The notes beneath the pieces were generated by a model, which saw only the letters and a program-made list of their open reading frames with translations, did no database searches and was not told where the DNA came from. From an uncultured Poribacteria bacterium (GTDB taxonomy: Bacteria > Poribacteria > WGA-4E > WGA-3G), in assembly GCA_951813565.1 (NCBI GenBank), contig OX638351.1, positions 1,344,001-1,408,000 on the forward strand: a stretch of 64,000 bases of DNA, given 5' to 3'. Shown piece by piece: positions 14,506-45,284 of this stretch. The translations under genes were made by a program, and so were the position numbers. Every line of letters begins with the position of its first letter. The stretch's first letter is position 1.

Positions 14506-15937
14506 GGGTGCGTAAAGTTTTGGTTATAAGTGTCATGCTGCCTGTTTGAGTTCATTCCAATATTTGTCCCAGTCCCCATTTTTCACTAAACACCGTAAGG
14601 CAAGCACCGGGTTGATACCTTTCTCTTTCCACCTCATAGCAGCTTGTGGACACCTTTGTCCGACAACCTGTGGACAGGCACTCTCAATCACACCACTCCC
14701 GATTTGATACCCTTTTTCCCGAAACTTTTTATACCGCGGACGAGCAGCGTGTTTTTCAAAATACCGTGCTTCTCTTTCGAAAATATCCGATACTTCCGGG
14801 TGCTGTGTGTCTAAGCCACGAATGCGTGCGGCTACTTCTGTAATGTTGCCATCATAAAGGATAGGTTCTGTCCTTTTTACCCAGTCTTGTATCGCCTCTG
14901 TTTCAGTCTCTCCGAAGGCAACTTTAGCAACATCGGACAGATGAGATTTCGCGTGCTTGTAATCCACAATCTCAACAGCATTGGGAAAGTATTCATCTGC
15001 TAAGTTCCAAATCCACGCAGCACCATCACCAAGAAACACAATCTCTTGCGTATCAATAGCTTCTTGGTAGATGCCACTATTGGTTGCTAACGCATATAAC
15101 TCCTTACCAAAATGTGCTGCATCATTACGCGTTGCAACATAACGGATACTTGTCTCTCTCGCACTTGACACCGCATCAGAACCACATTGTGGATAATCTC
15201 TGTAAACACAACCGACTTTTGTCTCTTGCCATCCATCAGTAGAGTTGGTGTAGCATCCATCACAACTTACATACCAACGCTGATTAGCCGCAAGTATTTG
15301 CGGTTCAACTTGTGCTGACACGCTCAAGTCTGATGACCACTCAAGCACTTTTTCGCGCACTATCGTATGGCTCACTTCTATCCCTTGAAAAGCCAACGCT
15401 TTCGCAGCAGCTCTATAGTCAAAATGCGCCGCAACATAACACATCCGCTCTACAACACGACGCGTCCATTTACCTCGCAACTTTTGACACGCATCCCAAG
15501 GTCTATGATAATGACCCGACACACATTTATACACCCAACGCTGCACACGGATCCTGCCACAAAGTGTTGTGATAGTCACGCCGCGTTTCTGTATCGGACG
15601 ACACGCTTGTTCACATTGTGGACAAGCAACAGGTGCTGTTGATTGTTGAGATGCTGCTTCGGATACACACACTTCCAACAACTTTTGACCCGTTCTATTC
15701 ATCAAGTCTCGCACACAAGTCTCAGCTGCTTCTAATGATACGCAACGGGATGACGAAAGTTCTCCTGCCACCTGAGCAATGTCTTCTAAAATCTCTTTGA
15801 CTTCCGGGTTTTCTAATGGTATACTAAACATCGGTATCCTTCCTGTGTTTCTAAGGTTATTAGGATAGGATACCCTATTTTTACTATAACCGCAACCTCT
15901 CTGGACATCAGTGTTTCTACAAAAACTTTACACACCC
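14506..15937 (-). mobile_element. ISKra4-like IS, copy 2 (inverted relative to copy 1)
   Basis: Same TIRs; left end and 5' coding region identical to copy 1. Confidence 0.85.
14533..15831 (-). CDS. ISKra4-like transposase, mosaic, possibly inactivated by Pro substitutions
   Basis: Same motifs as copy 1, but ARPRY and SACPQVVGQRCPQ near the catalytic Glu. Confidence 0.8.
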   Translation of the reverse strand: MFSIPLENPEVKEILEDIAQVAGELSSSRCVSLEAAETCVRDLMNRTGQKLLEVCVSEAASQQSTAPVACPQCEQACRPIQKRGVTITTLCGRIRVQRWVYKCVSGHYHRPWDACQKLRGKWTRRVVERMCYVAAHFDYRAAAKALAFQGIEVSHTIVREKVLEWSSDLSVSAQVEPQILAANQRWYVSCDGCYTNSTDGWQETKVGCVYRDYPQCGSDAVSSARETSIRYVATRNDAAHFGKELYALATNSGIYQEAIDTQEIVFLGDGAAWIWNLADEYFPNAVEIVDYKHAKSHLSDVAKVAFGETETEAIQDWVKRTEPILYDGNITEVAARIRGLDTQHPEVSDIFEREARYFEKHAARPRYKKFREKGYQIGSGVIESACPQVVGQRCPQAAMRWKEKGINPVLALRCLVKNGDWDKYWNELKQAA

Positions 15938-16009
15938 CGATCCATTTTTGTGCTTGCCTTACCCGTTAAAGTTGTGATAAACTATAACAAAAAACGCATT
16001 GGGAAACAG

Positions 16010-16384
16010 ATGTCATCTATAACAGACCCATCTAAAGTTTTAGCAGAGATATTGACAACAGAAAAACCGTGGGGACGTTTTATCCAGTACGTTCTTAATC
16101 AACCGGTAACTGTCAAGGTTTTGGAGATACATGCAGGTGAACGGGTCAGTTATCAGTATCATCACCATCGGAGTGAACTGTGGATACCGCTTGACGAAGG
16201 TGCGTGTGTTCGCATTGAGGAGGAAGTGATACATCCCGATCCGATGGAGCCAGTTTTTATTCCACAAGGTGCGAAACATCAGCTCATTGGCGAATCTCAA
16301 GATTATAGGATACTTGAAATTGCTTTCGGACATTTTGATGAGGAGGACATTGTCAGACTTGACGATAAATATGGAAGAGTTTAA
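16010..16384 (+). CDS. Mannose-6-phosphate isomerase type II C-terminal cupin protein
   Basis: EKPWG, SYQYHHHRSELW, FIPQGAKH, EEDIVRLDDKYGR. Confidence 0.85.
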   Translation: MSSITDPSKVLAEILTTEKPWGRFIQYVLNQPVTVKVLEIHAGERVSYQYHHHRSELWIPLDEGACVRIEEEVIHPDPMEPVFIPQGAKHQLIGESQDYRILEIAFGHFDEEDIVRLDDKYGRV

Positions 16385-16469
16385 AAGAGAGATGTGATTA
16401 TTGAGTCTAAACTTGAATTTCAGTGGTTTTGGAAAACCTTAACCCGAATTGACAATTGAGGAGACAACC

Positions 16470-17249
16470 ATGAATCACTTGAAACACTTTCGTTTATTGA
16501 TATGCGCTGTTCTGTTGTTTAACTTTATAATGTCAGGGTTTGGACAAGGAGAGAAAGCAGAAACCCTCGTAGGACATTGGACATTTGAGAAAGGTGTTGA
16601 ACTAGAAGATATAACGGGTAACTTTGCCGATATTACGCTCATGGGTGCTGAAATTGAGAATGGGCAATTGAATGTTGACCTCGGTAAGTGGGCAATAGCG
16701 AGTGGCTATGATGGTCCGGATATTGAGGAAAAAACGTTGGTGTCGTGGGTTATCATGGATAACCTTGACGTGCAGGAAGGTTCAATATTAACTGTTGATC
16801 GCCTCTCCGATCAAACTTTTGACGGAATTGTTTTTGGGGAACGTCAGAAGCATCGTTGGATGGCAGGGAGCGGGTGGTTTCATCGCACCCAAGACCCTGA
16901 ACCCGGTTTTGAGGAAAAGAAAACGGGGGAGTTGATTATGATGGCAATTTCGTATGAGAATGATAACGGCATTGCACGCGTGAGACTATACCGTAACGGA
17001 GACGAAATCGGTGACTACACATTTGGTCAATTTGTGTCTTTTGCTAAAAACGATGCTGAGGCTATTTGGGGTAAGCGTCACGGTGGTGTCGCTGGAGGTC
17101 CTGGCGATCTTGACGTCCATATTGAAGATTCACGAATTTATGCTGCTGTCCTCAGTCAGGCAGAGATTAAGAAGTTATTGCCAGACACGCTTGAAGTGGA
17201 AGCGCGCGGTAAACTCGCCACTACATGGGCAAGGCTAAAGACAAGATAG
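16470..17249 (+). CDS. Secreted LamG-like jellyroll protein with C-terminal KLATTW motif
   Basis: GAGGAG RBS, signal peptide, LVGHWTFE, RIYAAVLSQAEI, VEARGKLATTWARLK. Confidence 0.75.
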   Translation: MNHLKHFRLLICAVLLFNFIMSGFGQGEKAETLVGHWTFEKGVELEDITGNFADITLMGAEIENGQLNVDLGKWAIASGYDGPDIEEKTLVSWVIMDNLDVQEGSILTVDRLSDQTFDGIVFGERQKHRWMAGSGWFHRTQDPEPGFEEKKTGELIMMAISYENDNGIARVRLYRNGDEIGDYTFGQFVSFAKNDAEAIWGKRHGGVAGGPGDLDVHIEDSRIYAAVLSQAEIKKLLPDTLEVEARGKLATTWARLKTR

Positions 17250-17337
17250 ATATTTGTAGGTGCAATTAGGAAACCGAACTATAGGCGTCAATTTAGCGTG
17301 GATACACGCATTTTGGGTGTTGATTGCCATTTATCTT

Positions 17338-17428
17338 ATACCAAATTAACGAGTTTTGTATTGTTTTCACTGCCGAGAACACGGGCGGGCACAGAGACCC
17401 GCCCCTACGATTTTGGGTAATTTGGTAT
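17338..17428. mobile_element. 91-bp MITE (ATACCAAATT TIR) containing a GTAG-type REP hairpin
   Basis: TIR plus gggcgggcacagagacccgccc hairpin; inverted 91-bp copy at 28756-28846. Confidence 0.7.
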
Positions 17429-17615
17429 TAGCCTCAGCGGGGCGGAATGTTTATATTGTTATATGTCATTCCCGCTAAATGCTACACGCCAAATACCGGA
17501 AGCGCATTTGGCGTTGATTGGCAGTTTCAAACTGCGTCTAAAAAGATGGTGTTCACATGTTTTGGGATTTTCTATAAAAAAATGGGATTATTGGAGGTAA
17601 TAAAGAACAACATAA

Positions 17616-19049
17616 ATGAATTCAAGTTTAAAACAGATAGAACTGGGAAGCGATTCTGGTTTGAGACTCAAAATGCTTGTCTGTGCGGATACAGATGCAC
17701 AAGAGACAGATGAACTTGTTGATGCGCGTTTGGAAAATATTCAAGCACTCTTCAAGGCGGAGGTGGATGCACCACTATCCGTTTTAGAACAACATCTGCG
17801 TGCATGGACCCGCAGTCATCTACAAACAGAACATATTCAGCAAGTGCTTGACTTGTCTACCAAAGCAAGAAACGATTTCTCTGTTCTTGTAACTATCGGG
17901 ATAGGTGGGTCTGATTTAAGCGCGCGTGTTTTTCATGAAATTGCCAATCATCCGTATCACAATCTATTATCAATTTCCGAGCGGGGTGGTGCTCCAGAGG
18001 TTTACTTTACAGGTGATACGTTCGATCCGATTCGGTTGAAAGCATTACTTGAAATGCTGAAGTCTCGCAATTTGCTACACAAAACGCTTTTCAATGTCAT
18101 CAGCAAATCGGGGAAAACAGGCGAAACCCTCGCGACGTTAATGATTATTCGGGATAGACTCCAGCAAGAATTTGGGGAGTGGCAAAATCAGATCATCGCT
18201 ACTACTGGTTTGACGACAAAAAGTCTTCTCTATCAATTTCATCAGGAATCTTCGTTTTACGGTATACTCCCTGTTCCGGAAGGTGTTGGTGGTCGTTTTT
18301 CCGCTTTTTCACCAGTCGGTTTATTCTTTTTGGCGATGACTGCTGGGATTGGGAAGAGTCCAGAAGATAGTATAAACGCTGCGGTTGATGGTGTCCAACT
18401 TGCAGATGAGAACTTTCAACTGCCTTATGCGCATCCCAATAATATCGCATATCATCTTGCCCTATGGCTTGATTCTGTTGAGCAATATTACGGTGCGGGT
18501 AGCATTGTTTTCTATAATTACGCTGACAACAGTCGCCTTGGTGAGTGGTTTGTTCAGCTCTATACTGAATCGATTCAGGAACGCGGCTATGGGTCTAACG
18601 TTATTGCTGCGAAAGGTCCTACGAGTAATCATTCTATTCTCAACGGTATCCTTGCTGGGCCGAGAGATAAAGCAGTTATTTTTATCCATTGGGAAAACTT
18701 CGGCGCAGACTTAACAATCCCGTGTGGAAATGAAGGTAATGGATTAGAAGCGTTTGAAGGGCTTTCAATGAACGATAGTCAGACTGCATCCTATCAGGGA
18801 ACAGAGATGGATTTTACGGATAAAGACATTCCGAATGTTACGCTAACACTGCCCAGTCGAGATATTGGTAATGTGTGTCAATTGATGCGGACTCTAATGG
18901 ATACAGTGGCTATTAAAGGTAGGCTGCAAGAACTTCACCTTACCGATGGTATTTTGATGCCTGCAAAAGAGTTAACCTACCATCAATCGGCTGTTGAGGG
19001 ATATAAACAACGTACCGCAGAAATTGCTCGTGAAATGAAAAGGCGTTAA
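17616..19049 (+). CDS. pgi: Glucose-6-phosphate isomerase family protein (divergent)
   Basis: IGIGGSDL, ISKSGKTGET, GVGGRFS, QLYTES, NHS, QSAVEGYK. Confidence 0.75.
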   Translation: MNSSLKQIELGSDSGLRLKMLVCADTDAQETDELVDARLENIQALFKAEVDAPLSVLEQHLRAWTRSHLQTEHIQQVLDLSTKARNDFSVLVTIGIGGSDLSARVFHEIANHPYHNLLSISERGGAPEVYFTGDTFDPIRLKALLEMLKSRNLLHKTLFNVISKSGKTGETLATLMIIRDRLQQEFGEWQNQIIATTGLTTKSLLYQFHQESSFYGILPVPEGVGGRFSAFSPVGLFFLAMTAGIGKSPEDSINAAVDGVQLADENFQLPYAHPNNIAYHLALWLDSVEQYYGAGSIVFYNYADNSRLGEWFVQLYTESIQERGYGSNVIAAKGPTSNHSILNGILAGPRDKAVIFIHWENFGADLTIPCGNEGNGLEAFEGLSMNDSQTASYQGTEMDFTDKDIPNVTLTLPSRDIGNVCQLMRTLMDTVAIKGRLQELHLTDGILMPAKELTYHQSAVEGYKQRTAEIAREMKRR

Positions 19050-19125
19050 CTGATTTTAAAATCAATTATTTGGTTGAATTTGGTCAGTTGTTTTGAGCGG
19101 TGTGAAATTCAACAGGGTCAAATTT

Positions 19126-21057
19126 ATGAGATATGCTCAAAAAATGCTCAGCAAATTGTCCGCGCTTCGGCTTCAGAACAAGATTTTTTTTACTTATAGT
19201 CTTGTGTTCCTACTCATGTTTGCTGTTATCTTTGGGATTGCCAGTTTTCTGATTGACCGTGCTTTTAATACGCAATTTGAGAAAGACGTCGTTGAGTTGA
19301 GAACAAAAATTTCCAATTTGTATACGCTGTTTGTTGACTCTATTAGAATTGAGGTAAAAGCAATAGGTGAAGACCGAGACTTACGTAATGCAGTGCGGCG
19401 AGCAGAGAGAGGCGGCAGAGACATTCCACAAACTAATTTTGATGTTTTTGAATGTGGTAACACTGAGGGAATACTGGTGCTAAGTAAACGGATAGATGAA
19501 CCGCGCATCGGGCGAAAAGAAACTGAGATCGCTAATGTGAAAGTAGACGCATCATTCAAAGAGGGAAAAGGCACGATCCGTGAGCGGACTATCAAAACCG
19601 GTGAGGAACCGGAGTTAGTAGTTGAGGTGACGCAGTGGTTGGATTGGGGCTTTGTTACCGGAGGGCGGTCACTTGAAAAATGGTTAAAAGGTGAACTGCT
19701 CATCCAGCCGTCTGAACATCCGATTTTTCTTGTCAAAAGAAAGAATGAGCAAGAAGAGTGGATTCCTTTAAACAATATTGCGTACCACACACCGACTTTG
19801 AAAGCTAAATGGGAGCAGCAAAAGCAAACGAATGAGGAAGAGGACAAATCCGTTGAGGCGTTGGTGATCACTTTGAGGGATATTCAGCAATCTGAAGCCA
19901 CAGAAGCATCAGATAACGGCACTCGGACGTCCACATTTACAGTTATCCGTGCCGACATCTTAAGCTCACCTTTTTCGGATACGCAACGATTGCCTTTTGT
20001 AGAGTTAATTATCGCTTATTCGCATCAGTATCGTATTCAATGGCAAGAACAGATGATGATAATTTTGTTGTGGAGCATTGGTGGTGGTGCTGTATTGGTC
20101 TACTGCAGTAGTTATCTCGTGAGTCGGCGGATCACTCGTCCAATTGCCCAGCTCCAGCGAGGGGTAAACGAGGTCGGTGCTGGGAACCTTACTTATCAGA
20201 TCGCTGTTCAATCCAAGGGGGAAATAGGGGCGCTTGCTGATGGATTTAACCGGATGGCACTTGCGTTGAAACAGAGTTTAGAGGAGCATAAGGCAGCTGA
20301 AAGGGTCGCTGTATGGCGGGATGTCGCGCGCCAGCTCGCGCATGAAGTCAAAAATCCGCTATTCCCGATTCAGCTTTCCGTTGAGAACTTGCAAGCAGCG
20401 AGAGAACAACCAGCGATTTTTGAGAAAATCTTTGATGAATGTACAGAAACAATTATTGAAGAAGTTGACCGCATTCGTGGACTAATAGATGAGTTTCACC
20501 AATATGCGCGGTTACCCGTGCCTGACCGACATCCAGTTAATTTAAATGATATTGTAAATGCTGTTTTGAAATTGTATATGGAGTTATCTCAAGCACAAAA
20601 TATTAAGGTTGAAAAACAGTTGAGCCCGCTGCCACCTCTTTCATTAGACCAAGAGCAGATGGAACGTGCTGTGGGTAATCTTGTTAAGAATGCCATTGAA
20701 GCGATGCCGAACGGTGGAACGCTCATCCTTAGAACTTTTTCTACATCAATTGAAAAGGGAAGGAATATCTCGCTTGAAGTGAAAGATACTGGACACGGAA
20801 TGTCCGAGGAGACTCAACAAAACCTTTTTGCTGCTGATTATACAACTAAATCTTACGGGACTGGTCTTGGCATGGCAATTGTGCGCCGTATTATCACTGT
20901 CCATGGTGGAGAGATAGCAGTAGAATCGGAGGAGAACACCGGAACAACGATACGGATTACCTTTAACGAAACCTCATACCTTACCGAGACTGCACCTGTT
21001 TTGATGTTACCTGAAACTGCTCCAATGCGTATTCCGAATGGTGAGGAAGAGGGTTAG
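19126..21057 (+). CDS. HAMP-domain sensor histidine kinase (NtrY-like)
   Basis: Two TM segments, HAMP, WRDVARQLAHEVKNPL, NLVKNAIEAM, DTGHG, GTGLG; start uncertain. Confidence 0.9.
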   Translation: MRYAQKMLSKLSALRLQNKIFFTYSLVFLLMFAVIFGIASFLIDRAFNTQFEKDVVELRTKISNLYTLFVDSIRIEVKAIGEDRDLRNAVRRAERGGRDIPQTNFDVFECGNTEGILVLSKRIDEPRIGRKETEIANVKVDASFKEGKGTIRERTIKTGEEPELVVEVTQWLDWGFVTGGRSLEKWLKGELLIQPSEHPIFLVKRKNEQEEWIPLNNIAYHTPTLKAKWEQQKQTNEEEDKSVEALVITLRDIQQSEATEASDNGTRTSTFTVIRADILSSPFSDTQRLPFVELIIAYSHQYRIQWQEQMMIILLWSIGGGAVLVYCSSYLVSRRITRPIAQLQRGVNEVGAGNLTYQIAVQSKGEIGALADGFNRMALALKQSLEEHKAAERVAVWRDVARQLAHEVKNPLFPIQLSVENLQAAREQPAIFEKIFDECTETIIEEVDRIRGLIDEFHQYARLPVPDRHPVNLNDIVNAVLKLYMELSQAQNIKVEKQLSPLPPLSLDQEQMERAVGNLVKNAIEAMPNGGTLILRTFSTSIEKGRNISLEVKDTGHGMSEETQQNLFAADYTTKSYGTGLGMAIVRRIITVHGGEIAVESEENTGTTIRITFNETSYLTETAPVLMLPETAPMRIPNGEEEG

Positions 21058-21070
21058 CAGACAAATAAGT

Positions 21071-21327
21071 GAGGGTGTGCATAAATAATTTCGATGTTAA
21101 ATATGCGCTTAAAGGTAGTCCGCACACGCCGTGGGTTTCCCACAAGTTCAAAGAGGCGCAGCATGCCACACGGGGAATGCCATAAGGCATTCGGACCGTT
21201 GATTTGGCGCATGCTGCGTTGATTTGGCAATGAATTGCGCGACTACAAACGCATTTCTATAAATCAAGTGGTACCTGGCGTTTGTCCCTGTCTGTGTTGA
21301 TGCGCCAAATATTTATGCACACCCCTC
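21071..21327. mobile_element. MITE with GAGGGTGTGCATAAATA-type TIRs, filled with REP-like units
   Basis: gggtgtgcataaata / tatttatgcacaccc inverted ends; aaataag direct repeat in both flanks. Confidence 0.65.
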
Positions 21328-21367
21328 AAATAAGCTACGAACGTCCAAAATTCAGAGGCGGAGAGAT

Positions 21368-22747
21368 ATGAATACCATTCTTATTGTAGATGACGAAAAG
21401 AATATTCTGAAAATGCTTTCCCAAGGTTTAAGCATCAAAGGTTACAAAACCTTGACTGCAGCGAGTGGAGAAGAGGCGTTACAACTTTGTATGTCTGAGG
21501 ACATTGATCTTGTACTGTTAGATATTATGATGGAAAACGGCATAGATGGTATTGAAACGTTGACGAAATTACTTGAACAGCATCCTAATCTTAATGTCGT
21601 GATGATGTCTGCACAGCAGGATATTGAAATTGCTGTTAAAACATTGGAACTGGGTGCGAAACGCTACGTCACAAAGCCGATACGTATGGATAAAATTCTA
21701 TCCAATATTGAGCCGTTTTTAGAACTCGCGCGCTTAGCAAAAGAAAATGAAATACTTAAGTCCCAAATTGTAGTTGACGATGAAATGGTGGGTGAAAGCG
21801 CTGCCGTCTTCAAACTCCGCGCCGAAATTCGTCAGGTCGCATCAAGCGATCTTGGTGTGCTAATTTCTGGTGAAAATGGTACTGGTAAGCAGCTCGTTGC
21901 TAATGCAATACATAGATATAGCAAACGTTCTGACAACCCTTTTATTCCATTAAACTGCGCGGCGTTACCTGAAGAACTTGTTGAGAGCGAACTTTTTGGA
22001 CATGAACGAGGCGCGTTTACAGGTGCTGATTCTATGCGGCAGGGGCGGTTTGAACTGGCTGATGGCGGCACACTTTTCCTTGATGAAATAGGCGATATGA
22101 GTTTAAAAGCACAAGCAAAAGTGCTACGCGTGCTTGAATATGGAGAAGTGGAGCGGCTCGGAAGCCAACAGATTCGGAATGTGGATGTCCGAATCATCGC
22201 TGCAACTAACAAGGATCTTTCCGAAGAAATTGGGCGCGGGCAGTTCCGAACGGACCTCTATTATCGTCTCAAAATTGTTCCTATTGAGGTGCCACCACTA
22301 CGGGAAAGGTTAGACGATATCCCGATATTGGCGAAATATTTTGCTGAACGGCTACAGATGAATATGGCTTCTACACCGAAAACCTTTGCCGCGGAAGCAT
22401 ATCCTATTTTTCAATCTTATCGCTGGCCCGGCAACATCCGTGAACTCAAAAATATCGTTGAACGGCTACTCATCATGGTAAATCGGAAAATTATTTTGCC
22501 GACTGATGTTGCTGATGTCTTACCGATCAAAAAGAATGAAATGCAGATATTAGACGCTACAGCAGCTTATCAGTCGAATACGCCGCTGAGTACGATGGTT
22601 GATTCAGCCGAGGCACAATGTATTCTGGCAGCCTTGAAAGAGAATGATTGGAACATCCGTCGAACTGCCGAAGTATTGGAAGTAGAGAGAAGTAATTTGT
22701 ATAAAAAGATGAATAAATATAGTATTGCCCGTCCAGATTCAGGTTAA
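21368..22747 (+). CDS. Sigma-54-dependent response regulator (NtrX/NtrC-like)
   Basis: Receiver domain, GENGTGKQ, GAFTGA, LFLDEIGD, WPGNIREL, Fis-type HTH. Confidence 0.92.
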   Translation: MNTILIVDDEKNILKMLSQGLSIKGYKTLTAASGEEALQLCMSEDIDLVLLDIMMENGIDGIETLTKLLEQHPNLNVVMMSAQQDIEIAVKTLELGAKRYVTKPIRMDKILSNIEPFLELARLAKENEILKSQIVVDDEMVGESAAVFKLRAEIRQVASSDLGVLISGENGTGKQLVANAIHRYSKRSDNPFIPLNCAALPEELVESELFGHERGAFTGADSMRQGRFELADGGTLFLDEIGDMSLKAQAKVLRVLEYGEVERLGSQQIRNVDVRIIAATNKDLSEEIGRGQFRTDLYYRLKIVPIEVPPLRERLDDIPILAKYFAERLQMNMASTPKTFAAEAYPIFQSYRWPGNIRELKNIVERLLIMVNRKIILPTDVADVLPIKKNEMQILDATAAYQSNTPLSTMVDSAEAQCILAALKENDWNIRRTAEVLEVERSNLYKKMNKYSIARPDSG

Positions 22748-22941: not shown

Positions 22942-23096
22942 AACCTAAGTTGCTACGGACAAGATTTCAAGTTAGCAAACACTGCTTTTTACTGAAAAAA
23001 CAAGGCTTTTTCGCTGATTCTTATGTTTTTTGTTCTAAATCGGGGTTAGAAACCCCTCCTACAAGAGCATTTGCGAAATAGGTGGCAACTTGGGTT
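22942..23096. mobile_element. MITE (AACCTAAGTTGC TIR)
   Basis: aacctaagttgc / gcaacttgggtt ends with 5-bp TSD atact. Confidence 0.65.
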
Positions 23097-23561: not shown

Positions 23562-23564
23562 TCT

Positions 23565-25854: not shown

Positions 25855-26018
25855 ACCGATAACCATAAGTGTCAACTTAAGGATATATTTTGTTGTAGGA
25901 GGGATTTTCAACTCCGATAAATCTGCATGCAAAGTAGTAGGCACACTCCGTGTAAACAAGATAAGGCGGACGGAGTATGCCTGCTACCTTTAGATCACTA
26001 TTGACACTTGTGGGTGGC

Positions 26019-32886: not shown

Positions 32887-33029
32887 TGGTAAGTAATTCC
32901 TAAATCTATGGACAAACTCCGATAGGTGCGGGCGTATAAAGTTTTGTCAAAACCTACCCTACAAATGTAAGAGGCGCAATGAATTGCGCGACTACAAACG
33001 CCGTAAATCCAAAGAAATGGAGCCATTTT

Positions 33030-36617: not shown

Positions 36618-37163
36618 ATACACTATAGAGGTAAACGCACGCAGAAACCACGGGAAAGAAAAAGTCGTTCGAATTATCAGATTCGAGCTAAAGAGATTTT
36701 GCTTATTGATCATGAAAACAAGCAGATCGGTGTGATGACTCCGCGCGAAGCGATGGAACGTGCTGAAGAAGTCGGGTTGGACTTGGTCGAAGTTTCTCCG
36801 AATGCTGACCCTCCCGTTTGTAAGATAATGGACTATGGAAAGTATCAGTACGAAAAGAACAAACGTGAGCGAGAGGCTCGAAAGAAGCAAACAAAGATCG
36901 TTCTGAAAGAGATTCAATTCCGCCCTGATACAGCCGAGCATGATTATCAATTCAAGAAGCGCCACGTTGAAGACTTCTTGAAAAATGGATGGAAGGTGAG
37001 AGCAACAGTACGTTTCCGAGGTAGGGAGATGCTGCATACGGAGTTAGGCAGAAACATGCTTGCTCGATTAGAAAAGGATGTTGCTGAAATTGCAGAGGTT
37101 GAACAACCACCTAAGATGGAAACACGCACTATGTCCATGCTTTTGATGCCGAAATCTTCGTAA
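36618..37163 (+). CDS. infC: Translation initiation factor IF-3, predicted ATA start
   Basis: GLDLVEVSPNADPPVCKIMDYGKYQYE, FRGRE; frame open back to ATA at 36618, which follows a GGAGGT RBS and an in-frame TGA. Confidence 0.92.
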   Translation: MHYRGKRTQKPRERKSRSNYQIRAKEILLIDHENKQIGVMTPREAMERAEEVGLDLVEVSPNADPPVCKIMDYGKYQYEKNKREREARKKQTKIVLKEIQFRPDTAEHDYQFKKRHVEDFLKNGWKVRATVRFRGREMLHTELGRNMLARLEKDVAEIAEVEQPPKMETRTMSMLLMPKSS

Positions 37164-37351
37164 CTAAAGGTTTTTGTTGCAGGTATATGGCAAATCGTGT
37201 TCTCTTACGATTTGATGGCTTTTTGAAAGAGAATATCGTATGCGTGGAGATAGCGATTCTCCAAGTTGATTTTGTGCGTCTATGCCTACCTTTCGCTGAA
37301 AAAACCTCCAATAAAGTTCGTTAGATAAGCCATCAACAGAAGGATATTGTA

Positions 37352-37543
37352 ATGCCGAAAATTAAAACACATAAGGGCGCAGCAAAACGTTTTAAATTTA
37401 CTGCAAAAGGGAAGATCCGCCGCAATCGTGCGTATGCGGGGCACCTTTTTATCTCAAAATCCTCAAAACGGAAGCGTCGTTTAAGACAAAGCACGCTGGT
37501 AGATCCAAGTAATGAAAAACGTTTGAAACGTCTAATTTATTAG
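37352..37543 (+). CDS. rpmI: 50S ribosomal protein L35
   Basis: MPKIKTHKGAAKRFK; operon position. Confidence 0.95.
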   Translation: MPKIKTHKGAAKRFKFTAKGKIRRNRAYAGHLFISKSSKRKRRLRQSTLVDPSNEKRLKRLIY

Positions 37544-37552
37544 GAGTTCAGA

Positions 37553-37900
37553 ATGGCACGAGTAAAAACAGGGAATGTCCGTCGGAAACGGCGGAAACGG
37601 ATACTAAAGCACTCCAAAGGGTATCGCGGTGGACGTAACAACTTGAGACGTACCGCTATGGAGGCGGTTGAGAAGGGTTGGAATCACGCTTATGCACATA
37701 GACGTGCGCGAAAACGTGATTTTAGACGACTTTGGATTGTGCGTATTAATGCTGCCGCAAGACTACACGGACTTACATATAGCCGTTTTATGCACGGACT
37801 CAAAACAGCTGGTGTTGAGTTGGATAGGAAAGTCCTTGCCGATATTGCTGTGCATGATGCTGCAGGGTTTGGTCAACTTGCCGCCCTTGCCAAAGGGTAA
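37553..37900 (+). CDS. rplT: 50S ribosomal protein L20
   Basis: [27 protein letters not shown]. Confidence 0.96.
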
Positions 37901-37939
37901 GTTATACCGATACATTTGCCAATTAGATATTACATTATT

Positions 37940-38182
37940 AGAAGGTGATGAAGGGACACAGTAAGCCGTTGAGACCTCTCAACAAGAGAGACCACGCCAT
38001 CGGTTGGAAGCGCGGTTTTGAGAGCAACTGCCGAATTTCATTCTGGAGCCGATAAAAAATAATGAAGCGGACAGATTTCACAATCTGTCAAGCGGGGTGG
38101 TACCGCGGAAGTAGATGCCTATCGCTTTCGTCCCCATAAGGAATTAACCTTTATGGAGCGAAGTGATGGGTGTTATTTTTTT
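37940..38182 (+). promoter_or_regulatory. T-box riboswitch leader (Phe) for pheST
   Basis: GGGTGGTACCGCG T-box around 38095-38107, AGAGA and GGTTGGAA stem I motifs, TTC specifier at 38037-38039, tcgtccc antiterminator 3' side, terminator with U-run. Confidence 0.88.
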
Positions 38183-38193
38183 AAGAGGCAACT

Positions 38194-39210
38194 ATGAAAA
38201 CAGAATTAGAAGCGATTCAAGCAGAAGCTCTTGAGGCTTTGAAAGCAGTAAAATCTTCAGACGCGCTTGAATCGCTCAAAATAACATATTTTGGACGCAA
38301 GGGAAAGTTGACAGATGTTATGAAAGGAATGGGACAACTTTCGAATGAGGAGCGTCCGATAATTGGAAAACTTGCTAACGATGTGCGAACCACGCTAACC
38401 GAAGCGTTTGAAGAAACAAAGAACGTACTGGATAGCCAACAACAGGAACTGCAACTTGAGGCAGAATCAATTGACATAACACTTCCCGGACGAAAACCTG
38501 CGTATGGGAAAGCGCATCCGGTGATGCAAACGTTGGAACGGATTGAAGCGATCTTCACGCAAATGGGTTTTCAGATTGTGACAGGACCGGAAGTTGAGAC
38601 GGAACATTACAATTTTGACGCACTCAATACACCTCCCGACCATCCCGCGCGCGATTTACATGATACATTCTACTTAACGGACGGACATCTGTTGCGCACC
38701 CATACTTCTCCTGTCCAAATTCGCGTGATGGAGAACCAGAAACCGCCAGTACGTATTATTGTGCCGGGGAAGGCGTATCGTGTAGATTACGATGTCTCCC
38801 ATACACCAATGTTTCACCAAGTCGAAGGACTGCTTGTGGATAGGCATGTTACCTTCAGCGAATTGAAGGGCATGTTGGTATCCTTTGCGCGGCAGATGTT
38901 TGGTGATCAGACACAGATGCGTTTCCGTCCACACTTTTTCCCTTTTACAGAACCGAGTGCGGAGGCTGATATTTCTTGTACTGTGTGTCGTGGTAAGGGG
39001 TGTCGCAGTTGCGGACACACCGGTTGGATTGAAATCTTGGGCGCAGGTGCTGTTGACCCAGAAGTGTTCCGTGCTGTTAACTATGACCCAGAGGAGGTTA
39101 CTGGTTTTGCTTTTGGTATGGGGGTAGAGCGAATTGCAAACCTCCAGTTCCGCATACCGGATATCCGTACCTTCTATGAAAACGATCTCCGTTTCTTGCA
39201 GCAGTTTTAA
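38194..39210 (+). CDS. pheS: Phenylalanine-tRNA ligase alpha subunit
   Basis: HPARDLHDTFY, LRTHTSPVQ, FPFTEPS, GFAFGMGVER. Confidence 0.97.
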   Translation: MKTELEAIQAEALEALKAVKSSDALESLKITYFGRKGKLTDVMKGMGQLSNEERPIIGKLANDVRTTLTEAFEETKNVLDSQQQELQLEAESIDITLPGRKPAYGKAHPVMQTLERIEAIFTQMGFQIVTGPEVETEHYNFDALNTPPDHPARDLHDTFYLTDGHLLRTHTSPVQIRVMENQKPPVRIIVPGKAYRVDYDVSHTPMFHQVEGLLVDRHVTFSELKGMLVSFARQMFGDQTQMRFRPHFFPFTEPSAEADISCTVCRGKGCRSCGHTGWIEILGAGAVDPEVFRAVNYDPEEVTGFAFGMGVERIANLQFRIPDIRTFYENDLRFLQQF

Positions 39211-39267
39211 TAGTAGCGGGCATTCTTGTAGGAGGGGTTTGTAACCCCGATTTTTAAGGACTTATCT

Positions 39268-41694
39268 ATGAACGTAACCCTAAATTGGCTAAAGACCTAT
39301 ATCGATTTTGATTTTTCTCCAGATCAACTCGCGGAAAGATTAACGATGTTAGGCATTGAAGTTGAATCTGTCAAACAGCTCGGCGCAGCGTTAGAAGGCG
39401 TAGTTGTCGGCAAAGTAACTTCCATCAGACCACATCCAAATGCTGATAAACTTGTGCTTTGTCAGGTAGATATTGGTGAGACGGACGCACTTCAGATTGT
39501 TTGCGGTGCGCCGAACGTGTGTGAAGGAATGTTTGCACCTGTCGCAACAATCGGCACAGAATTACTGACCGGTATTACAATCAAACGTGCTAAATTGCGT
39601 GGAGAAGAATCGCACGGTATGCTCTGTTCAGAGAAAGAGTTGGGTTTAGCGGCGCAGCTTGCAAGCGCATATTCTAAGTCTGATGAAGCCGCAGGACTCA
39701 TGGAATTATCTTCTGATTTATCCATTGGCTCGTCACTTACTGAAGCGTTAGGTTTAGACGATGTGGTATTTGAATTAGAGATAACACCGAACCGTCCGGA
39801 CTGTCTCAGTATGATGGGTGTTGCCCGCGAAATACGCGCTGAAACAGGTAACGACTTGAAATTGCCACAAATTGACCTACAAGAAAGTGAAGCGGACATA
39901 AACAAACGGACATCCGTAACAATTGATGCGCCTGAATTGTGCCCACGTTATGCAGCGCGTGTAATCCGTGGTGTTAAGATCGGGGAATCGCCTACATGGC
40001 TAAAACAGCGGCTTGAATCTATCGGTGTAGGTGTTATTAACAATATCGTGGATGTTACTAACTTTGTCTTGATGGAATATGGGCAACCGCTGCACGCCTT
40101 TGATTATCACAAACTTGCTGAAAATCGTATTGTCGTGCGCTGTGCAGCAGAAGGCGAACAGATTACAACGCTTGATGAAGAGGAACGCAACCTGACTCCC
40201 GATATGTTAGTTATCGCAGATGCAGAAAAGCCTGTGGCACTTGCAGGGATTATGGGTGGCTATGACTCTGAAATCACTGAGACAACATGTGATGTGCTAC
40301 TGGAAAGCGCCAATTTCCAACCGTCAAGCGTCCGAGCAACCGCAAAAGCATTGGGAATACACACTGAGGCATCATATAGATTTGAACGTGGTGCGGATCC
40401 GGAGGCTGTTATTCCCGCGCTTGACCGTGCAGCACAAATGATTGTGGAATTAGCAGGCGGCACCGTCTGTAAAGGTATTATCGATGTCTATCCGGGTAAA
40501 AGTGAACTACTACAGATTCAACTTCGTTCCGAACGCGCCAATTTCATATTGGGAACCACGCTTGAAGCAGATGAGATAAAACAGATTTTAAGTCGGTTAG
40601 GGTTTGGTGTGGAAGCATTACAATCAGAGGAAAATGTCTATCAGGTCACCGTCCCATCGTTCCGATCAGATATTACACGTGAAATTGATCTGATTGAAGA
40701 AATTGCACGTGTCCACGGTTATGATAACATCCCGACAACGCTACCAAAGGGCGACATTCCTATCCCCGTGCCAAACATCTCAGCAGAAGTTCGTAAACGG
40801 ACAAAGCATTTCCTACTTGGATCCGGCATGATGGAGGCTATCAATTATAGTTTCAGCCATCCAAACTGTTTTGATAGGATACGGTTAACAGCAGGCAATC
40901 CGCTTCGCCAAGCACTACAACTGAAAAACCCGTTGAGTCCAGAGATGTCAGTACTTCGCACTACGTTGTTGCCGAGTCTGCTTAATAATGCACAGCACAA
41001 TCACAATCATCAGATAAATAATATTGCATTCTTTGAACTGTCTACCGTGTTCATCCAAGGCAAAGAGCCAGAACGCATTGCTGGTATCCTTGCAGGGGAG
41101 ATTGGCGGTGGTGTCTACGGCAATCCGTATCGTCATCCAGACTTCTTTGACGTTAAGGGTATTGTTGAAAGTATGCTTGAAGTCTGCGGTATTACCGATT
41201 ATTCGTTTAAGAAAACGGAAGATCCAACTTTCCACCCAGGTCGTAACGCAGAGGTGTTGTTGGATAAAAAACGCATCGGTATCCTTGGAGAGGCACACCC
41301 GAAAGTGCTGGAAAGTTATGAGTTGCCTTACAAAGCGTATCTCTTTGAACTTGACCTTGAAGCATTAGCGGGCGCAGCCGATTTTTCCAAACGTTTTGAA
41401 CCGATCCCAATCTATCCCAGCGTGCTACGTGATCTCGCCATTGTTGTAGATAAAAATATGCAGTCGGATGTGCCGATAGCGTTTATCTATTCCACAGGGG
41501 GAGAATTGGTTGAATCGGTCCGACTCTTTGACGTATACGTTGGGGATCAGGTGCCGGAAGGTAAAAAGAGTCTTGCTTACACGATCACATATCACTCTGC
41601 AACTGAAACCTTGACGGATAAAGCGGTTAACGATCTCCACGACAAGGTTGTCAAACGACTGAATCAAGAACTTGGTGCAGAGTTAAGAATGTAA
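39268..41694 (+). CDS. pheT: Phenylalanine-tRNA ligase beta subunit
   Basis: HPNADKL, ITPNRPD, ASYRFERG, DLIEEIAR, FDX-ACB C-terminus. Confidence 0.97.
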   Translation: MNVTLNWLKTYIDFDFSPDQLAERLTMLGIEVESVKQLGAALEGVVVGKVTSIRPHPNADKLVLCQVDIGETDALQIVCGAPNVCEGMFAPVATIGTELLTGITIKRAKLRGEESHGMLCSEKELGLAAQLASAYSKSDEAAGLMELSSDLSIGSSLTEALGLDDVVFELEITPNRPDCLSMMGVAREIRAETGNDLKLPQIDLQESEADINKRTSVTIDAPELCPRYAARVIRGVKIGESPTWLKQRLESIGVGVINNIVDVTNFVLMEYGQPLHAFDYHKLAENRIVVRCAAEGEQITTLDEEERNLTPDMLVIADAEKPVALAGIMGGYDSEITETTCDVLLESANFQPSSVRATAKALGIHTEASYRFERGADPEAVIPALDRAAQMIVELAGGTVCKGIIDVYPGKSELLQIQLRSERANFILGTTLEADEIKQILSRLGFGVEALQSEENVYQVTVPSFRSDITREIDLIEEIARVHGYDNIPTTLPKGDIPIPVPNISAEVRKRTKHFLLGSGMMEAINYSFSHPNCFDRIRLTAGNPLRQALQLKNPLSPEMSVLRTTLLPSLLNNAQHNHNHQINNIAFFELSTVFIQGKEPERIAGILAGEIGGGVYGNPYRHPDFFDVKGIVESMLEVCGITDYSFKKTEDPTFHPGRNAEVLLDKKRIGILGEAHPKVLESYELPYKAYLFELDLEALAGAADFSKRFEPIPIYPSVLRDLAIVVDKNMQSDVPIAFIYSTGGELVESVRLFDVYVGDQVPEGKKSLAYTITYHSATETLTDKAVNDLHDKVVKRLNQELGAELRM

Positions 41695-41729
41695 TACCAT
41701 TTCTGAATAATTGCTTTTTGTTAACAAAA

Positions 41730-41865
41730 ACGCGTTTGTAGTCGCGCAATTCATTGCGCCTCGGACATTTACTCTCAGATTTGTGGTTAGCAGACTCACG
41801 CGTTTGTAGTCGCGCAATTCATTGCGCCTCGGACATTTACTCTCAGATTTGTGGTTAGCAGACTC
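41730..41865 (+). repeat. Perfect 68-bp tandem duplication containing a GTAG-type REP
   Basis: 41730-41797 is identical to 41798-41865. Confidence 0.9.
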
Positions 41866-41879
41866 AGTTAAAAACTATT

Positions 41880-42581
41880 ATGCACGCGCACCGTATAAAA
41901 AACCTATTTTCAGCCATTGCACGTCACTACGATTTTCTCAACTCGTTGTTGAGTCTCCGATTTGATCGGGGATGGCGAAGGGAAACAGTCAAAGCGAGCA
42001 GTGTAACCCCAACAAGCAAGGTGCTTGATGTTTGCACAGGTACAGGTGAACTTGCACTTGCGTATGCCGATAAAATAGGTGCGGATGGTTCAGTGATCGG
42101 TTCTGATTTCTGCTTTGAGATGTTAGTTGTCGGTAAGCAAAAGGTAGAACGGCAGGATCGGACGCACGCCTTTGTCCCGATTGAAGCGGATACGCTCACC
42201 CTCCCGTTTTCAGACAACACTTTTGACATTGTCTCTGTCGGTTTTGGTATCCGAAACGTTTCCGACCTTGAATTGGGCATCCAAGAGATGACAAGAGTCG
42301 CTGTACCGGGTGGTAGAATTGCCATATTAGAATTTACGCAGCCTGTCAATCCGGTATTTCGTAGTCTCTACTATTTCTATTTTACAAAGATTTTACCTTT
42401 TATAGGCAATTGCATTTCGCGCAGCAAAGACGATGCGTACGGTTATCTTCCCCGTTCCGTCATGCAGTTTCCGAATTGTGATGCATTGAAAGTAGTTATG
42501 GAGCAGTGCGGATTGACAGATGTCCAGTATTTTCGGAAAACGTTAGGCATCGTTGCAATTCATGTTGGTGAAAAGGCATAG
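41880..42581 (+). CDS. ubiE: Demethylmenaquinone/ubiquinone methyltransferase (UbiE/MenG)
   Basis: FSAIARHYDFLN, LDVCTGTG, FGIRNV, AYGYLPRSV. Confidence 0.9.
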   Translation: MHAHRIKNLFSAIARHYDFLNSLLSLRFDRGWRRETVKASSVTPTSKVLDVCTGTGELALAYADKIGADGSVIGSDFCFEMLVVGKQKVERQDRTHAFVPIEADTLTLPFSDNTFDIVSVGFGIRNVSDLELGIQEMTRVAVPGGRIAILEFTQPVNPVFRSLYYFYFTKILPFIGNCISRSKDDAYGYLPRSVMQFPNCDALKVVMEQCGLTDVQYFRKTLGIVAIHVGEKA

Positions 42582-42614
42582 ATTTGTCTTGAAAATATAT
42601 TTATAGGAGAAACT

Positions 42615-43751
42615 ATGAAAACTTTGCTAAAGTTTTTTACTCTCATAGTAGTAGGAATACTCGCTGTTTATATGGTTGGTTGTGGAGAACGTGCTGAAGA
42701 TGATGACGTTGAAGCTGCCCACTTGATGCGTGCAAACCCAACACCCGGTAGCACAATTGCTGCGAATAGCACTATTACCGTGACTTTTGACAAAGACCCT
42801 GGCAGTGTGGAAGTGAATGTAGGTGCCGCCACAACATCTGGCGCAACAGTCACAATTACAGGACCATTCCAACAAGGGCAATTTACCTTGACACTTACTT
42901 GGGAGGGTGGAACCCGAGATTTAACATACATAGTAGGCACTTCCGAACCGCTTGACGTTGAGCCTGAGCAGATCCCTGAACTTGAACCCGTTGCACCTGA
43001 AGGGATGGTGCTGATACCTGAAGGAGAATTTCAGATGGGAAGTGAAGATGGTGACGCTGATAACGATGAACAACCGGAGCATGCCGTTTATATTGATGCT
43101 TTTTATATTGATGAAAATGAAGTAACCAACGCACAATTTAAGGACTTTGTTCTTGCTAACCCTGAATGGCAGAAAAACCGCATTGATGAAAAATTCCAAA
43201 ATGGCAATTATCTGCACGATTGGAATGGCAATAATTATCCTGACGAGGAAGGTGAGCATCCAGTGCGTTACGTCAGTTGGTATGCCGCAATGGCTTACGC
43301 AGTATGGGTAGATAAACGTCTACCGACAGAAGCGGAATGGGAGAAGGCAGCACGCGGTGGACTAAAAGGGAAAAAATATCCGTGGGGCAATCAGATTAAC
43401 TTAGCAGATGCCAACTACGGTAAAAATATCGGACATACGACACCTGTTGGTAAATACCTTCCGAATGACTACGGCGTTTATGACATGGCAGGGAATGTGT
43501 GGGAGTGGTGTTTAGACGCATATCAGAGCGACTTCTATGCAAATTCTCCAAAGCGAAATCCTGTTGCAGGTGCTGACAACGTTGCGGAAATTGTAAACGA
43601 CTTTAAGAATCTTGTAACTGATCGTGTCCTACGTGGCAGTGGATGGAACGGTAATCCAGAGTGGTTACGCGCCGCAAATCGCTATGGGGATAGTCCTGCT
43701 TATGCGGGGATTGGTGCACTTGGATTTCGTTGTGCAAAGGATGTTGAATAG
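42615..43751 (+). CDS. Lipoprotein with Ig-like and FGE-sulfatase (SUMF1) domains
   Basis: MVGC lipobox, EVTN, RLPTEAEWEKAARGG, DMAGNVWEW, GFRC. Confidence 0.88.
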   Translation: MKTLLKFFTLIVVGILAVYMVGCGERAEDDDVEAAHLMRANPTPGSTIAANSTITVTFDKDPGSVEVNVGAATTSGATVTITGPFQQGQFTLTLTWEGGTRDLTYIVGTSEPLDVEPEQIPELEPVAPEGMVLIPEGEFQMGSEDGDADNDEQPEHAVYIDAFYIDENEVTNAQFKDFVLANPEWQKNRIDEKFQNGNYLHDWNGNNYPDEEGEHPVRYVSWYAAMAYAVWVDKRLPTEAEWEKAARGGLKGKKYPWGNQINLADANYGKNIGHTTPVGKYLPNDYGVYDMAGNVWEWCLDAYQSDFYANSPKRNPVAGADNVAEIVNDFKNLVTDRVLRGSGWNGNPEWLRAANRYGDSPAYAGIGALGFRCAKDVE

Positions 43752-43947
43752 TTCGCGATACTATAGTGGATTATAAAATTGAGTGGACATTTTCTTAGAA
43801 TTTGTAGTGTTTGTAGTCGCGCAATTCATTGCGCCTCTTACATTAATCGGTAGTCGAGGTCTTCTAACCTCGACTGTTCACAGTATTTAACGCTCTTCCC
43901 GTCAAATCCCCATGCTTTAGCTTGTGGGATGTAGACAGGAAAAAACC

Positions 43948-43976
43948 TTGACATTGAAATGAAACCCTGATATACT
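43948..43976 (+). promoter_or_regulatory. Near-consensus sigma70 promoter of tnpB
   Basis: TTGACA-17 bp-TATACT; identical in element B. Confidence 0.8.
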
Positions 43977-44059
43977 AATTAGACCGTTCAGTGGTAGTTG
44001 TTGTAGCAGCTGCCACACCACTACAATGGGAAACGGACTCTTCATAGAAACGGCATATC

Positions 44060-45170
44060 ATGAGAAAAACCTATAAATATAAGATACAAAATCAAAAGAA
44101 CACACAAACTTGGCAACCTGCTTGACGACATGCACCAGATACATGTGCATATTATGCGCTTGCAGCGTAGGTATTACCGTCTGTTTGGTAAAAATATATC
44201 TGCTTACACAATGACCAGACATATTACGAAGTTGAAAAAGCGAACAAAATCGCAGTGGAAGTCGTTGCCAAGCCAAGTTGTTCAAGATGTTGTGTTGCGT
44301 ATGGGAAAAGCCTACGATGCGTTTTTCAGAAATATAGAAGAGCGCAAAGCAGGCAAAACGACAAAGAAAGTTGGCAAACCTCATATCAAGCCTCAACACA
44401 AATATAACTCTATGACCTTTACACAAGCAGGATACAAACTTGAAGGGAACCGTATCAAGATCACCTGTATAGACACGTGGTTTTCTTTTCATAAACATCG
44501 TGAAATCATAGGTAACATCAAAACAATAACTATCAAACGTGATATGTGCGGAGATTACTGGATATGCTTCAGTTGTGATAATGTTGACGATACCGAACCG
44601 ATGCCCAAGACAGGTAAGAGCGCAGGGTTTGACTTCGGACTGAAAACATTTCTCACAGGTTCTGATGGTAGCAAGATAGAGGCGCCGCAGTTTTTGAAAC
44701 AGTCCTTGAACAAGTTGAGAACCCTGAACAAAAACTTGAGCCGTAAAGTTTTCAAATCTAATAGCTGGTATCGTGCCAAGCGCGCAATAGCACGGCAACA
44801 CAGAAAAATAGCACGGCAACGCAAAGATTGGCACTGGCAACTTGCTACTCAACTTTGTGCCGAATACGATACATTGTGCTTTGAAACGCTCAACATTGAC
44901 GGCATGAAAAGACTTTGGGGCAGAAAAATATCTGACCTCGCTTTCTACCAATTTATTGAGATTTTGAAATATAAATCTATCAAACATGATCGTCAATTCC
45001 TACAAGTTGGGCAGTGGACTGCTACGACAAAGCCTTGTTCGGACTGTGGACATCATAACAAAAAACTTGAACTCAACGATAGACAGTGGCTATGTCCTCA
45101 ATGTGACGCTCTCCACGATAGAGACATAAACGCTGCTATAAACATATGTCAAGCAGGGATAGCTGCTTGA
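44060..45170 (+). pseudogene. tnpB: TnpB, frameshifted by loss of one AC unit near 44100-44106
   Basis: RuvC D/E/D (GFDFG, FETL, HDRD) and Zn finger present; aacacacaaa here versus aacacacacaaa in element B. Confidence 0.8.
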
Positions 45171-45284
45171 GGGTGGAGACAATGTCCGACGGGTTATCTC
45201 TCAGAGATAAACGCTGTTGTCTAAGAAACCGAAGCCCCTACCTTGAGGGAGTGGGTGCTATCACATAATCGTAAAACCTACTAT
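45140..45284 (+). ncRNA. Predicted omegaRNA/reRNA of TnpB element A (boundaries approximate)
   Basis: Position at the tnpB 3' end and right end with hairpins; predicted guide is the flank starting at 45265. Confidence 0.55.

Follow-up and report, generated by a model that had tools for sequence, protein, structure and literature searches.

A directional, motif-specific double substitution converts GTA[A/G/T] to GTCC in several species of one Poribacteria genus

Several species of one genus of Candidatus Poribacteria fix GTAD (that is, GTA[A/G/T]) to GTCC as a coupled two-base change. The pattern was noticed in a 64,000-nt stretch of DNA (hereafter the window, positions 1,344,001-1,408,000 of the 5.43-Mb single-contig genome G000; other Poribacteria genomes also carry G-numbers), where copies of an insertion sequence (IS) and of repetitive extragenic palindrome (REP) modules differ by adjacent pairs of bases. 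Sequencing runs containing G000 sequence are mostly sponge-related. We are highly confident that GTAD>GTCC is a real, directional, and motif-specific double substitution, and the data support its occurrence on either strand, in repeats, intergenic DNA, and core genes, with damaging changes fixed among the rest. The initial annotation had attributed the pattern to a repair-, modification- or polymerase-linked process driving GTNN to GTCC; a directional tandem substitution tied to a motif is indeed what we find, but its source is not GTNN.

The repeats of G000 define the motif. When 1,716 repeated regions (691 kb) were compared against this genome, 917 distinct isolated adjacent doublets were obtained, of which the commonest three were GTAT/GTCC (23), GTAA/GTCC (20), and GTAG/GTCC (18), together 61 of the 917. 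Expressed per 1,000 opportunities, the exchanges of GTAT, GTAG, and GTAA with GTCC rank first to third among 1,152 classes (6.3, 6.0, and 5.9), whereas class means are 0.40 for doublets with one transition and 0.21 for those with none, which places GTAD/GTCC 16-28 times above background. The 61 doublets lie in 61 distinct contexts. Partners of GTCC of the form GT[G/T]N number 15 across six classes, a level like that of other prefixes; because each of these six other GTNN partners contributes only 0-5 cases, the rule is GTA[AGT] rather than the GTNN originally proposed. Many REP sites carry AD and CC alleles only, with intermediates scarce, and single GTCD/GTCC differences in repeats stay at background (11, 8, and 31 against 10.2, 7.2, and 30.7 expected, or 50 versus 48 overall). 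The six triple substitutions have mixed third bases, giving no sign of longer fixed patches. A pyrimidine precedes the motif at 51 of the 61 repeat events and at 66 of 86 orthologue events, where it is mostly T. A preference for a 3′ purine, present at 46 of 61 repeat events, was not replicated in orthologues (36 of 86).

Repeats are less suitable for establishing direction. Majority-rule polarity within repeat families is misleading (10 gains and 7 apparent losses) because converted copies have been amplified, and direction was given instead by outgroups. Single-copy DNA totaling 177 kb, in which three or more of seven genomes align, was scored for singleton alleles. Here 24 of 2,899 sites have GTCC in one genome and GTAD in the majority, where other prefixes predict 2.6 (p = 1e-15); loss of GTCC, the opposite change, is seen at 6 of 809 sites (3.8 expected). 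Thus polarized double substitutions are enriched for GTCC products, as the initial annotation had predicted they would be, and these gains agree with the repeats in confirming its further claim that GTCC arises from different ancestral dinucleotides, on either strand, even when the protein is damaged. Coding effects in G000 include Tyr>Trp, Asp>Gly (3), Ile>Gly, Tyr>Ser (3), Leu>Arg, and Glu>Gln (3). The gains are evident in five close species (7 against 0.32 expected in G000, 5/0.14 in G017, 4/0.34 in G006, 3/0.29 in G052, and 3/0.13 in G003), unclear in G053 (1/0.41), and at expectation in G007 (1/0.93). The same single-copy alignments also show GTAG>GTCG raised to 41 versus 16.5 expected, which is not so in repeats (12 versus 10.6).

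A REP 12-mer had suggested that the process is confined to the G000 species, as its GTAT form is present in all 40 genomes of the genus (138 copies in G000 and 2,859 elsewhere) and its GTCC form has 100 copies in G000 and 9 in the other 39 genomes. This view is overturned by the single-copy gains and by a second REP site, where 19 genomes have 10 or more copies and 17 of them carry the GTCC allele (share 0-56%). The process is therefore clade-wide.

In unique non-coding DNA, GTAD>GTCC is about as frequent as one A>C transversion: on the G000 side, 7 of 1,017 unique intergenic GTAD sites are converted, versus 18 of 22,866 for other prefixes, and the same GTAD sites show nine single A>C changes. 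Synonymous Val-Leu and Val-Arg codon pairs are converted in 4 of 70 cases versus 7 of 751 control pairs, and aligned repeat sites in 5 of 149 on the G000 side. Counts of G000-side events vary with the genome compared (19/3,100 against G006 and 15/2,669 against G052, but only 4/2,795 against G017), a regional difference. Within the species, 60 metagenome loci, reduced to 212 kb by dropping those without a long match of >95% identity to G000, contain 514 single-nucleotide polymorphisms (SNPs) and 25 isolated doublets. Two clean GTAT/GTCC differences are among them, both in repeats; in unique DNA of these contigs no GTAD>GTCC change is seen at 3,890 GTAD sites. Single GTAC/GTCC differences account for 5 of the 514 SNPs. 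The loci had been chosen by their GTCC-form pattern, so that the REP site at window position 21193 is circular in this set.

In some REP families the GTCC share is 20-56%, which reflects how converted modules were subsequently copied and shuffled rather than the rate per site. REP modules are shuffled to the extent that flanking markers are in linkage equilibrium with one another. The four-gamete mixing seen in REPs was accordingly dropped as a proof of recurrence, as flanking markers mix as well; a 10-mer REP test gave a result too near chance level for use, and trees of IS and tnpB copies were too mosaic for counting events.

The substitution has left little mark on genome composition. The proposal that GTCC accumulates as HIP1 (highly iterated palindrome 1) does in cyanobacteria fails here: the observed/expected ratio (O/E) of GTCC/GGAC in G000 is 1.10 under a Markov model, no notable excess, and 0.98 from base composition; in unique non-coding DNA it is 1.02 (rank 112 of 256), and of the one-off sites GTCD is not drawn to GTCC, conversion being raised for GTAC alone. 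Among Val-Leu and Val-Arg codon pairs, GTA|TTR (1.15) and GTA|AGR (1.37) are not depleted, and the process is therefore far from saturation. GC skew in G000 is too flat to resolve a replication-strand bias of the doublet. The initial annotation also counted Gly codons before C-starting codons correctly (GGA in 7/7 cases in pheS and 6/7 in 8112-10064), but this habit is unrelated to the doublet. The GGA share is 0.51 genome-wide, with GGC|C at 0.048, and six relatives, among them signature-free G007, range from 0.44 to 0.58; the share is high because GGC|C, which creates GGCC, is avoided.

The motifs on which the initial annotation relied are all present in the window, and the alleles of other genomic copies agree with GTAD>GTCC at most of them. 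Copy 2 of the IS (minus strand; transposase open reading frame (ORF) of 432 aa at 14533..15831) carries several such changes. At 14648..14651 (-), GTAA>GTCC replaces Lys by Pro, and the ancestral GTAA stands in IS copy 1 at 11380-11383; genomic copies read TGTCCA (4), TGTAAA (5), TGCAAA (11), or GGCAAA (2). The same exchange at 14672..14675 (-) again turns Lys into Pro, within the motif GSGVIESACK (GTCC form 5, TGTAAA 14, TGCAAA 3), and at 15464..15467 (+), GTAT>GTCC gives Tyr>Trp on the coding strand (TGGACG 5, TATACG 2, TACACG 14). Two further sites are compatible with the rule only through an extra synonymous step that is observed in no copy. The Met>Pro change at 14738..14741 (-) would be compatible with a direct GTAT ancestor, found in none of the copies (CGAATG 13, CGCATG 3), and the Tyr>Ser change at 14935..14938 (-), also present at 63530 (other copies TATATG 15), is a weak case of GTAD>GTCC.

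The IS copies themselves (10094-11540, 14490-15937, and 62504-64000) are mosaic: copy 1, which has a weak UPF0236 match, equals copy 2 over the 5′ third, and copies 2 and 3 are nearly identical in the middle part, with a further IS copy directly after copy 3. At window 14546-14547, contigs from the sequencing runs X1, X2, and X6 carry TT>GG, a coding-strand AA>CC that follows TC rather than GT and is an IS allele absent from the window.

Among the REP modules, GTAG>GTCC at 21118..21121 (+) has its unconverted GTAG counterpart, by sequence comparison, at 25937..25940 (+), and G000 copies are 24 CC and 15 AG. At 21193..21196 (-) the conversion is real, although the ancestor is ATAC (GTAT on the other strand) rather than the ATAG or ACAG first suggested; 100 CC and 138 AT make up the 238 G000 copies, and only 9 of 2,868 copies in 39 congeners are CC. 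A module with GTCC at 22957..22960 (-) belongs to a family of 56 CC and 2 AG copies. In another arm, GTAA>GTCC at 41763..41766 (-), with a tandem duplicate at 41831-41834, aligns with GTAA in G006; its unconverted GTAA counterparts in the window are at 43838..43841 (-), by sequence comparison, and at 32967..32970 (+), where the arm pairs with a GTAG foot in a predicted hairpin. Across G000 this site has 55 CC versus 44 AA alleles. A perfect 68-bp tandem duplication (41730-41865) copied the converted arm.

One site escaped the initial annotation. Codon 214 of PheT, a single-copy core gene, has changed from CTT AC to CGG AC at 39908..39911 (-), replacing Leu by Arg; among 20 genomes this position is GTCC in two (G000 and G008), GTAA in 8, and something else in 10. 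Conversely, GTCC near a tnpB end at 45184..45187 (+) had been listed on the strength of element B, which is unalignable there; no second copy exists, and without an alignable counterpart the site was excluded from the event count. At the end of a tnpB element (58690-58710 and its copies), about 37 near-identical ends share one GTAC site, which reads GTCC in one copy and GGAC in another, two mirror single changes.

With regard to cause, we tentatively favor, at a probability of roughly 0.4, the unproven reading that the doublet arises as a side effect of the GTAC restriction-modification system, of the PabI family, that this clade carries. R.PabI is described as excising the unmethylated A of GTAC (PMC4357717, PMC10273834); the A that changes in the doublet is the base that R.PabI is reported to excise and its partner methyltransferase (M) to methylate (PMC4357717), and a high mutation rate at the A of GTAC is reported for Helicobacter pylori (PMC12366791). 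Under this reading, a replication error on one strand would first turn the fourth base of GTAD into C. That strand would then read GTAC, with an unmethylated A next to a mismatch, and the PabI system would act on this A, the glycosylase (R) excising it while present and the methyltransferase otherwise flipping or methylating it. Finally, the damaged position would be fixed as C, so that the new site exits as GTCC instead of GTAC.

The spectrum of single changes fits such a course. In single-copy DNA, GTAD>GTAC singles are missing (38 versus 97 expected; 5 versus 28 for GTAA and GTAG), as they are in repeats (16 versus 44), whereas at position 3 new GTAC sites arise almost as often as expected (174 versus 198). 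The A of GTAC is lost in 81 cases versus 44.9 expected, and to C in 21 versus 7.3. Because GTAD>GTAC is missing and GTAC>GTCC is raised, we infer that a new C completes GTAC, the A is attacked, and the site exits as GTCC.

The genus also has the relevant genes. G000 encodes an orphan methyltransferase assigned by homology to the PabI type (G000:1,589,699-1,590,865, outside the window; 389-aa ORF with an NPPY motif), which is full-length, matches the PADLOC model MTase_II (E 6.5e-89), and is 80% identical to M genes adjoining R in G006 and G010; homology and this adjacency suggest GTAC specificity and GT(m6A)C methylation in vivo. The methyltransferase is present in 32 of 40 genomes of the genus, including G000, and in none of 16 genomes of other families; the M-negative congeners are G004, G007, G015, G018, G022, G041, G046, and G047. 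Three of 24 congeners, but none of the 16 other-family genomes, have an R match (HALFPIPE/PF09522) above the cut-off. The R protein of G006 matches R.CcoLI (E 4.6e-41), and R23, E51, Y56, H233, and D236, invariant in 28 homologues, correspond to PabI R32, E63, Y68, H211, and D214, the last two of which were paired by inspection of the end of the alignment. The five close species that are M-positive gain GTCC 3-7 times each, with 0.13-0.34 expected, and M-negative G007 does so once (0.93 expected).

PabI loci in the genus are decaying in places, with a partial R beside M in G014 (L030), a broken R in one G011 copy (L042), and a split second M in G009 (L048). Outside it, PabI-family R proteins occur in many phyla, including Patescibacteria, Verrucomicrobiota, Rickettsiales, Clostridia, and DPANN archaea (302 matches), a range wider than the abstract of PMC10273834 states; Poribacteria-named records are 8 among the best 80 of the 302 matches.

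Several observations weigh against the PabI reading. PF09522 was not found in G000, most species that bear the signature are without a found R, and G006, whose R is intact, shows no higher rate. Presence of M essentially marks one clade, and the M-negative control is weak, being a single genome chunk and a further 27 kb or so in which no event was seen, so that this one-clade contrast has low power; the REP comparison (0/356 copies in M-negative versus 9/2,512 in M-positive genomes, G000 excluded) is uninformative. Moreover, M-negative G007 is just as poor in GTAC (O/E 0.60), and deficits of outer-position gains also exist at GGCC (8 versus 54) and CCGG (31 versus 99), where no doublet class stands out. 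The glycosylase specificity of R.PabI is described as very stringent (PMC4357717). In 3.3-kb PabI loci of 22 Helicobacteraceae genomes the doublet class is absent (0/43 doublets), although with 52 GTAD sites this comparison has little power. The model must also assume that just one heteroduplex orientation is productive, and it leaves unexplained why A becomes C. Abasic sites usually take A opposite, not G, and a Y-family polymerase (PF00817) was not detected in the one genome searched. Finally, the repeat classes are equal (23, 18, and 20 for GTAT, GTAG, and GTAA) and, for GTAA and GTAG, outnumber the single changes that are missing, which would suit a one-step event that does not depend on the identity of D.

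Such an event, possible though in our view somewhat doubtful, would start when the A of (T/C)GTAN is damaged or nicked, after which an error-prone patch of 2 nt writes CC (GG on the opposite strand) irrespective of N. Star activity of the PabI system, or another enzyme, could cause the lesion, and a polymerase or a nucleotidyltransferase could supply the patch. Besides the equal rates per opportunity of the three repeat classes, this account is favored by majority-polarized repeat families, which hold 27 GTAD>GTCC events where 8.9 D>C singles are expected, and in which GTAC>GTCC obeys the same rule (3 of 18 families versus 0.1 expected). Background levels of GTCD intermediates, the lack of any indication of longer fixed patches, and the replicated 5′ pyrimidine agree with it as well. 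However, repeat counts are inflated by module shuffling, single-copy classes are GTAT-heavy (55 of 91), and the depletion of GTAD>GTAC singles is something that this model does not need. Nor was a candidate writer found: PF00817 has a match in 0/1 and the archaeo-eukaryotic primase (AEP) family PF01896 in 0/5 genomes. A second DnaE domain (G000:3,820,634-3,821,404, in a 1,435-aa frame), present also in G006, G017, and, in shorter form, signature-free G007, was not found in signature-bearing G003. These three enzymes, like the IS607 transposases considered below, were set aside as not tracking the signature; MutS is present in 5/5 genomes. It seems unlikely that an enzyme activity writes an untemplated CC, taking (T/C)GTAN to GTCC in a single sequence-directed step. 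Such a rewriter could be another repair enzyme; otherwise it would represent a new activity either of the orphan PabI-type methyltransferase or of the glycosylase partner that it has lost.

We consider it improbable that two independent mutations explain the pattern, GTAD>GTAC being followed by rapid GTAC>GTCC through methylation-induced hypermutation or restriction avoidance. GTAC is depleted in G000 (O/E 0.57) and unstable, with GTAC>GTCC in single-copy DNA at 24 versus 8.9 expected (2.7-fold), and single-copy DNA holds seven cases of the mirror product GTAT>GGAC, where about one is expected from frame-matched controls (4/4,047 sites). A part of the GTAT events is thus probably two-step via GTAC. 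Nevertheless, a free GTAC INTERMEDIATE fits poorly because the palindrome predicts GGAC as often as GTCC, and GTAD>GGAC is seen once in repeats versus 61 cases of GTAD>GTCC, and 0 versus 13 times for GTAA and GTAG in single-copy DNA. The main exit from GTAC is GTGC (48 versus 24), but GTAD>GTGC does not rise above background (7 versus 6.6), and approximately 7,800 GTAC sites persist in G000. For GTAA and GTAG, the two-step route is largely refuted.

IS607-type elements have a 2-bp GG/CC core. Insertion of such an element at GTAD with a mismatched core, and later excision leaving CC, would amount to a length-neutral dinucleotide replacement, and G000 has three copies of the serine transposase and G003 has 16 matches. 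This origin is very improbable, as the transposase was not found in strong-signature G017 and is present in signature-free G007, and inspection of the downstream flanks of the three G000 copies, whose ends were mapped inexactly, revealed no GTAD/GTCC junction.

Barely credible is an artefact of sequencing or polishing, or a small number of old events that repeat amplification and gene conversion have multiplied, in spite of mixed REP haplotypes that offer no proof of recurrence, since modules are shuffled, and a 42% GTCC share in the 21193 family that is limited to the G000 species: there are 24 single-copy gains across seven genomes besides the 61 repeat contexts. An artefact in particular is unlikely because independent assemblies carry GTCC alleles. 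Contigs assembled independently and about 99% identical to the window have GTCC at 21118 and 22957, and fragmented assemblies of other species carry the CC allele in 54 of 149 (G019), 18 of 70 (G045), and 10 of 51 (G014) copies; indirectly, contigs from runs X1, X2, and X6, which differ from the window at 14668, show no difference at 14648 or 14672 among the matches listed.

GTAC is one of several palindromes avoided in G000 (O/E for CTAG 0.04, CATATG 0.08, GGCC 0.26, TCGA 0.43, GATC 0.54). Avoidance of CTAG is extreme in G000 and six relatives alike (0.02-0.14), and gains of CTAG are nearly nil (8 versus 222 expected in single-copy alignments). Multi-copy elements are far poorer in GTAC than unique DNA, with 18 families versus 234-302 for GTAA, GTAG, GTAT, and GTCC, which may reflect past restriction of mobile DNA. 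Other methyltransferase genes lie in the window itself. In an adenine/N4 DNA methyltransferase gene at 55295-56142 (-), a frameshift has produced two overlapping ORFs (156 and 182 aa), and at 56339-58675 a 497-aa type II-like adenine methyltransferase faces a 246-aa ORF without an NCBIfam or PADLOC match, possibly an unrecognized restriction partner.

In bacteria, adjacent double substitutions are as a rule rare and are dismissed as noise, whereas at this motif one class of them roughly equals a single transversion in frequency. They give amino-acid changes that are out of reach of a single step, such as Leu>Arg, Asp>Gly, Tyr>Trp, and Lys>Pro, some of them fixed in core genes, and such doublets can lead codon models of positive selection astray. 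Should the PabI system be causal, restriction-modification would mutate sites before it recognizes them and keep new ones from arising, so that palindromes could be avoided by mutation as well as by selection, the usual route. Should an enzyme indeed write an untemplated CC in one step, these bacteria would harbor a natural motif-programmed two-base editor that shapes genome and protein evolution.

In the literature searched, which left most subscription journals outside its coverage, no prior report of the GTAD>GTCC doublet was found, and this type of mutation seems undescribed to that extent. Among its closest relatives is the mutagenesis reported for the PabI family (HpPabI; PMC12366791, PMC10273834), which shares the motif core and the adenine, and whose enzyme family is present in the genus. 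The effect reported in those texts is a single substitution at the cognate GTAC, whereas here the predominant effect is a two-base change at near-cognate GTAD that yields one fixed product, and the words GTCC and GGAC are absent from the main text of PMC12366791. As with the PabI family, the Poribacteria genus keeps M while R decays, and its GTAC is under-represented and mutates at A.

In methylation-induced hypermutation, reportedly described by Cherry in 2018 and 2021, a methylated site is said to be destroyed by a change of one base. A motif-specific excess of mutation is common to both phenomena, as the 2.7-fold excess of GTAC>GTCC illustrates, and here too it may be tied to a resident methyltransferase. 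Unlike that process, however, the doublet arises at non-sites, changes two adjacent bases in a strand-coupled manner, and leaves no lasting GTAC intermediate. The symmetry that hypermutation of a palindrome should have is missing, as the doublet starts from non-cognate GTAD and its mirror product is seen in 1 versus 61 cases.

The model of GmeC-directed repair at HIP1 holds that a replication error beside a methyltransferase site, or completing it, biases fixation (Elhai 2015, PMC4390886), and our favored reading likewise lets an error near such a site bias the fixed outcome. HIP1 is reported as a palindrome enriched 15-300-fold (PMC5861425) and has been modelled by single steps, whereas GTCC is non-palindromic, barely exceeds expectation, and does not draw in its GTCD neighbors.

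Double-base-substitution (DBS) signatures, such as the CC>TT changes caused by UV, are adjacent two-base changes that act as single events, as GTAD>GTCC appears to do. DBS spectra have been reported for bacteria as well (PMC10625568). Unlike these signatures, the substitution described here requires a context of 4-5 bases and produces CC from three different dinucleotides.

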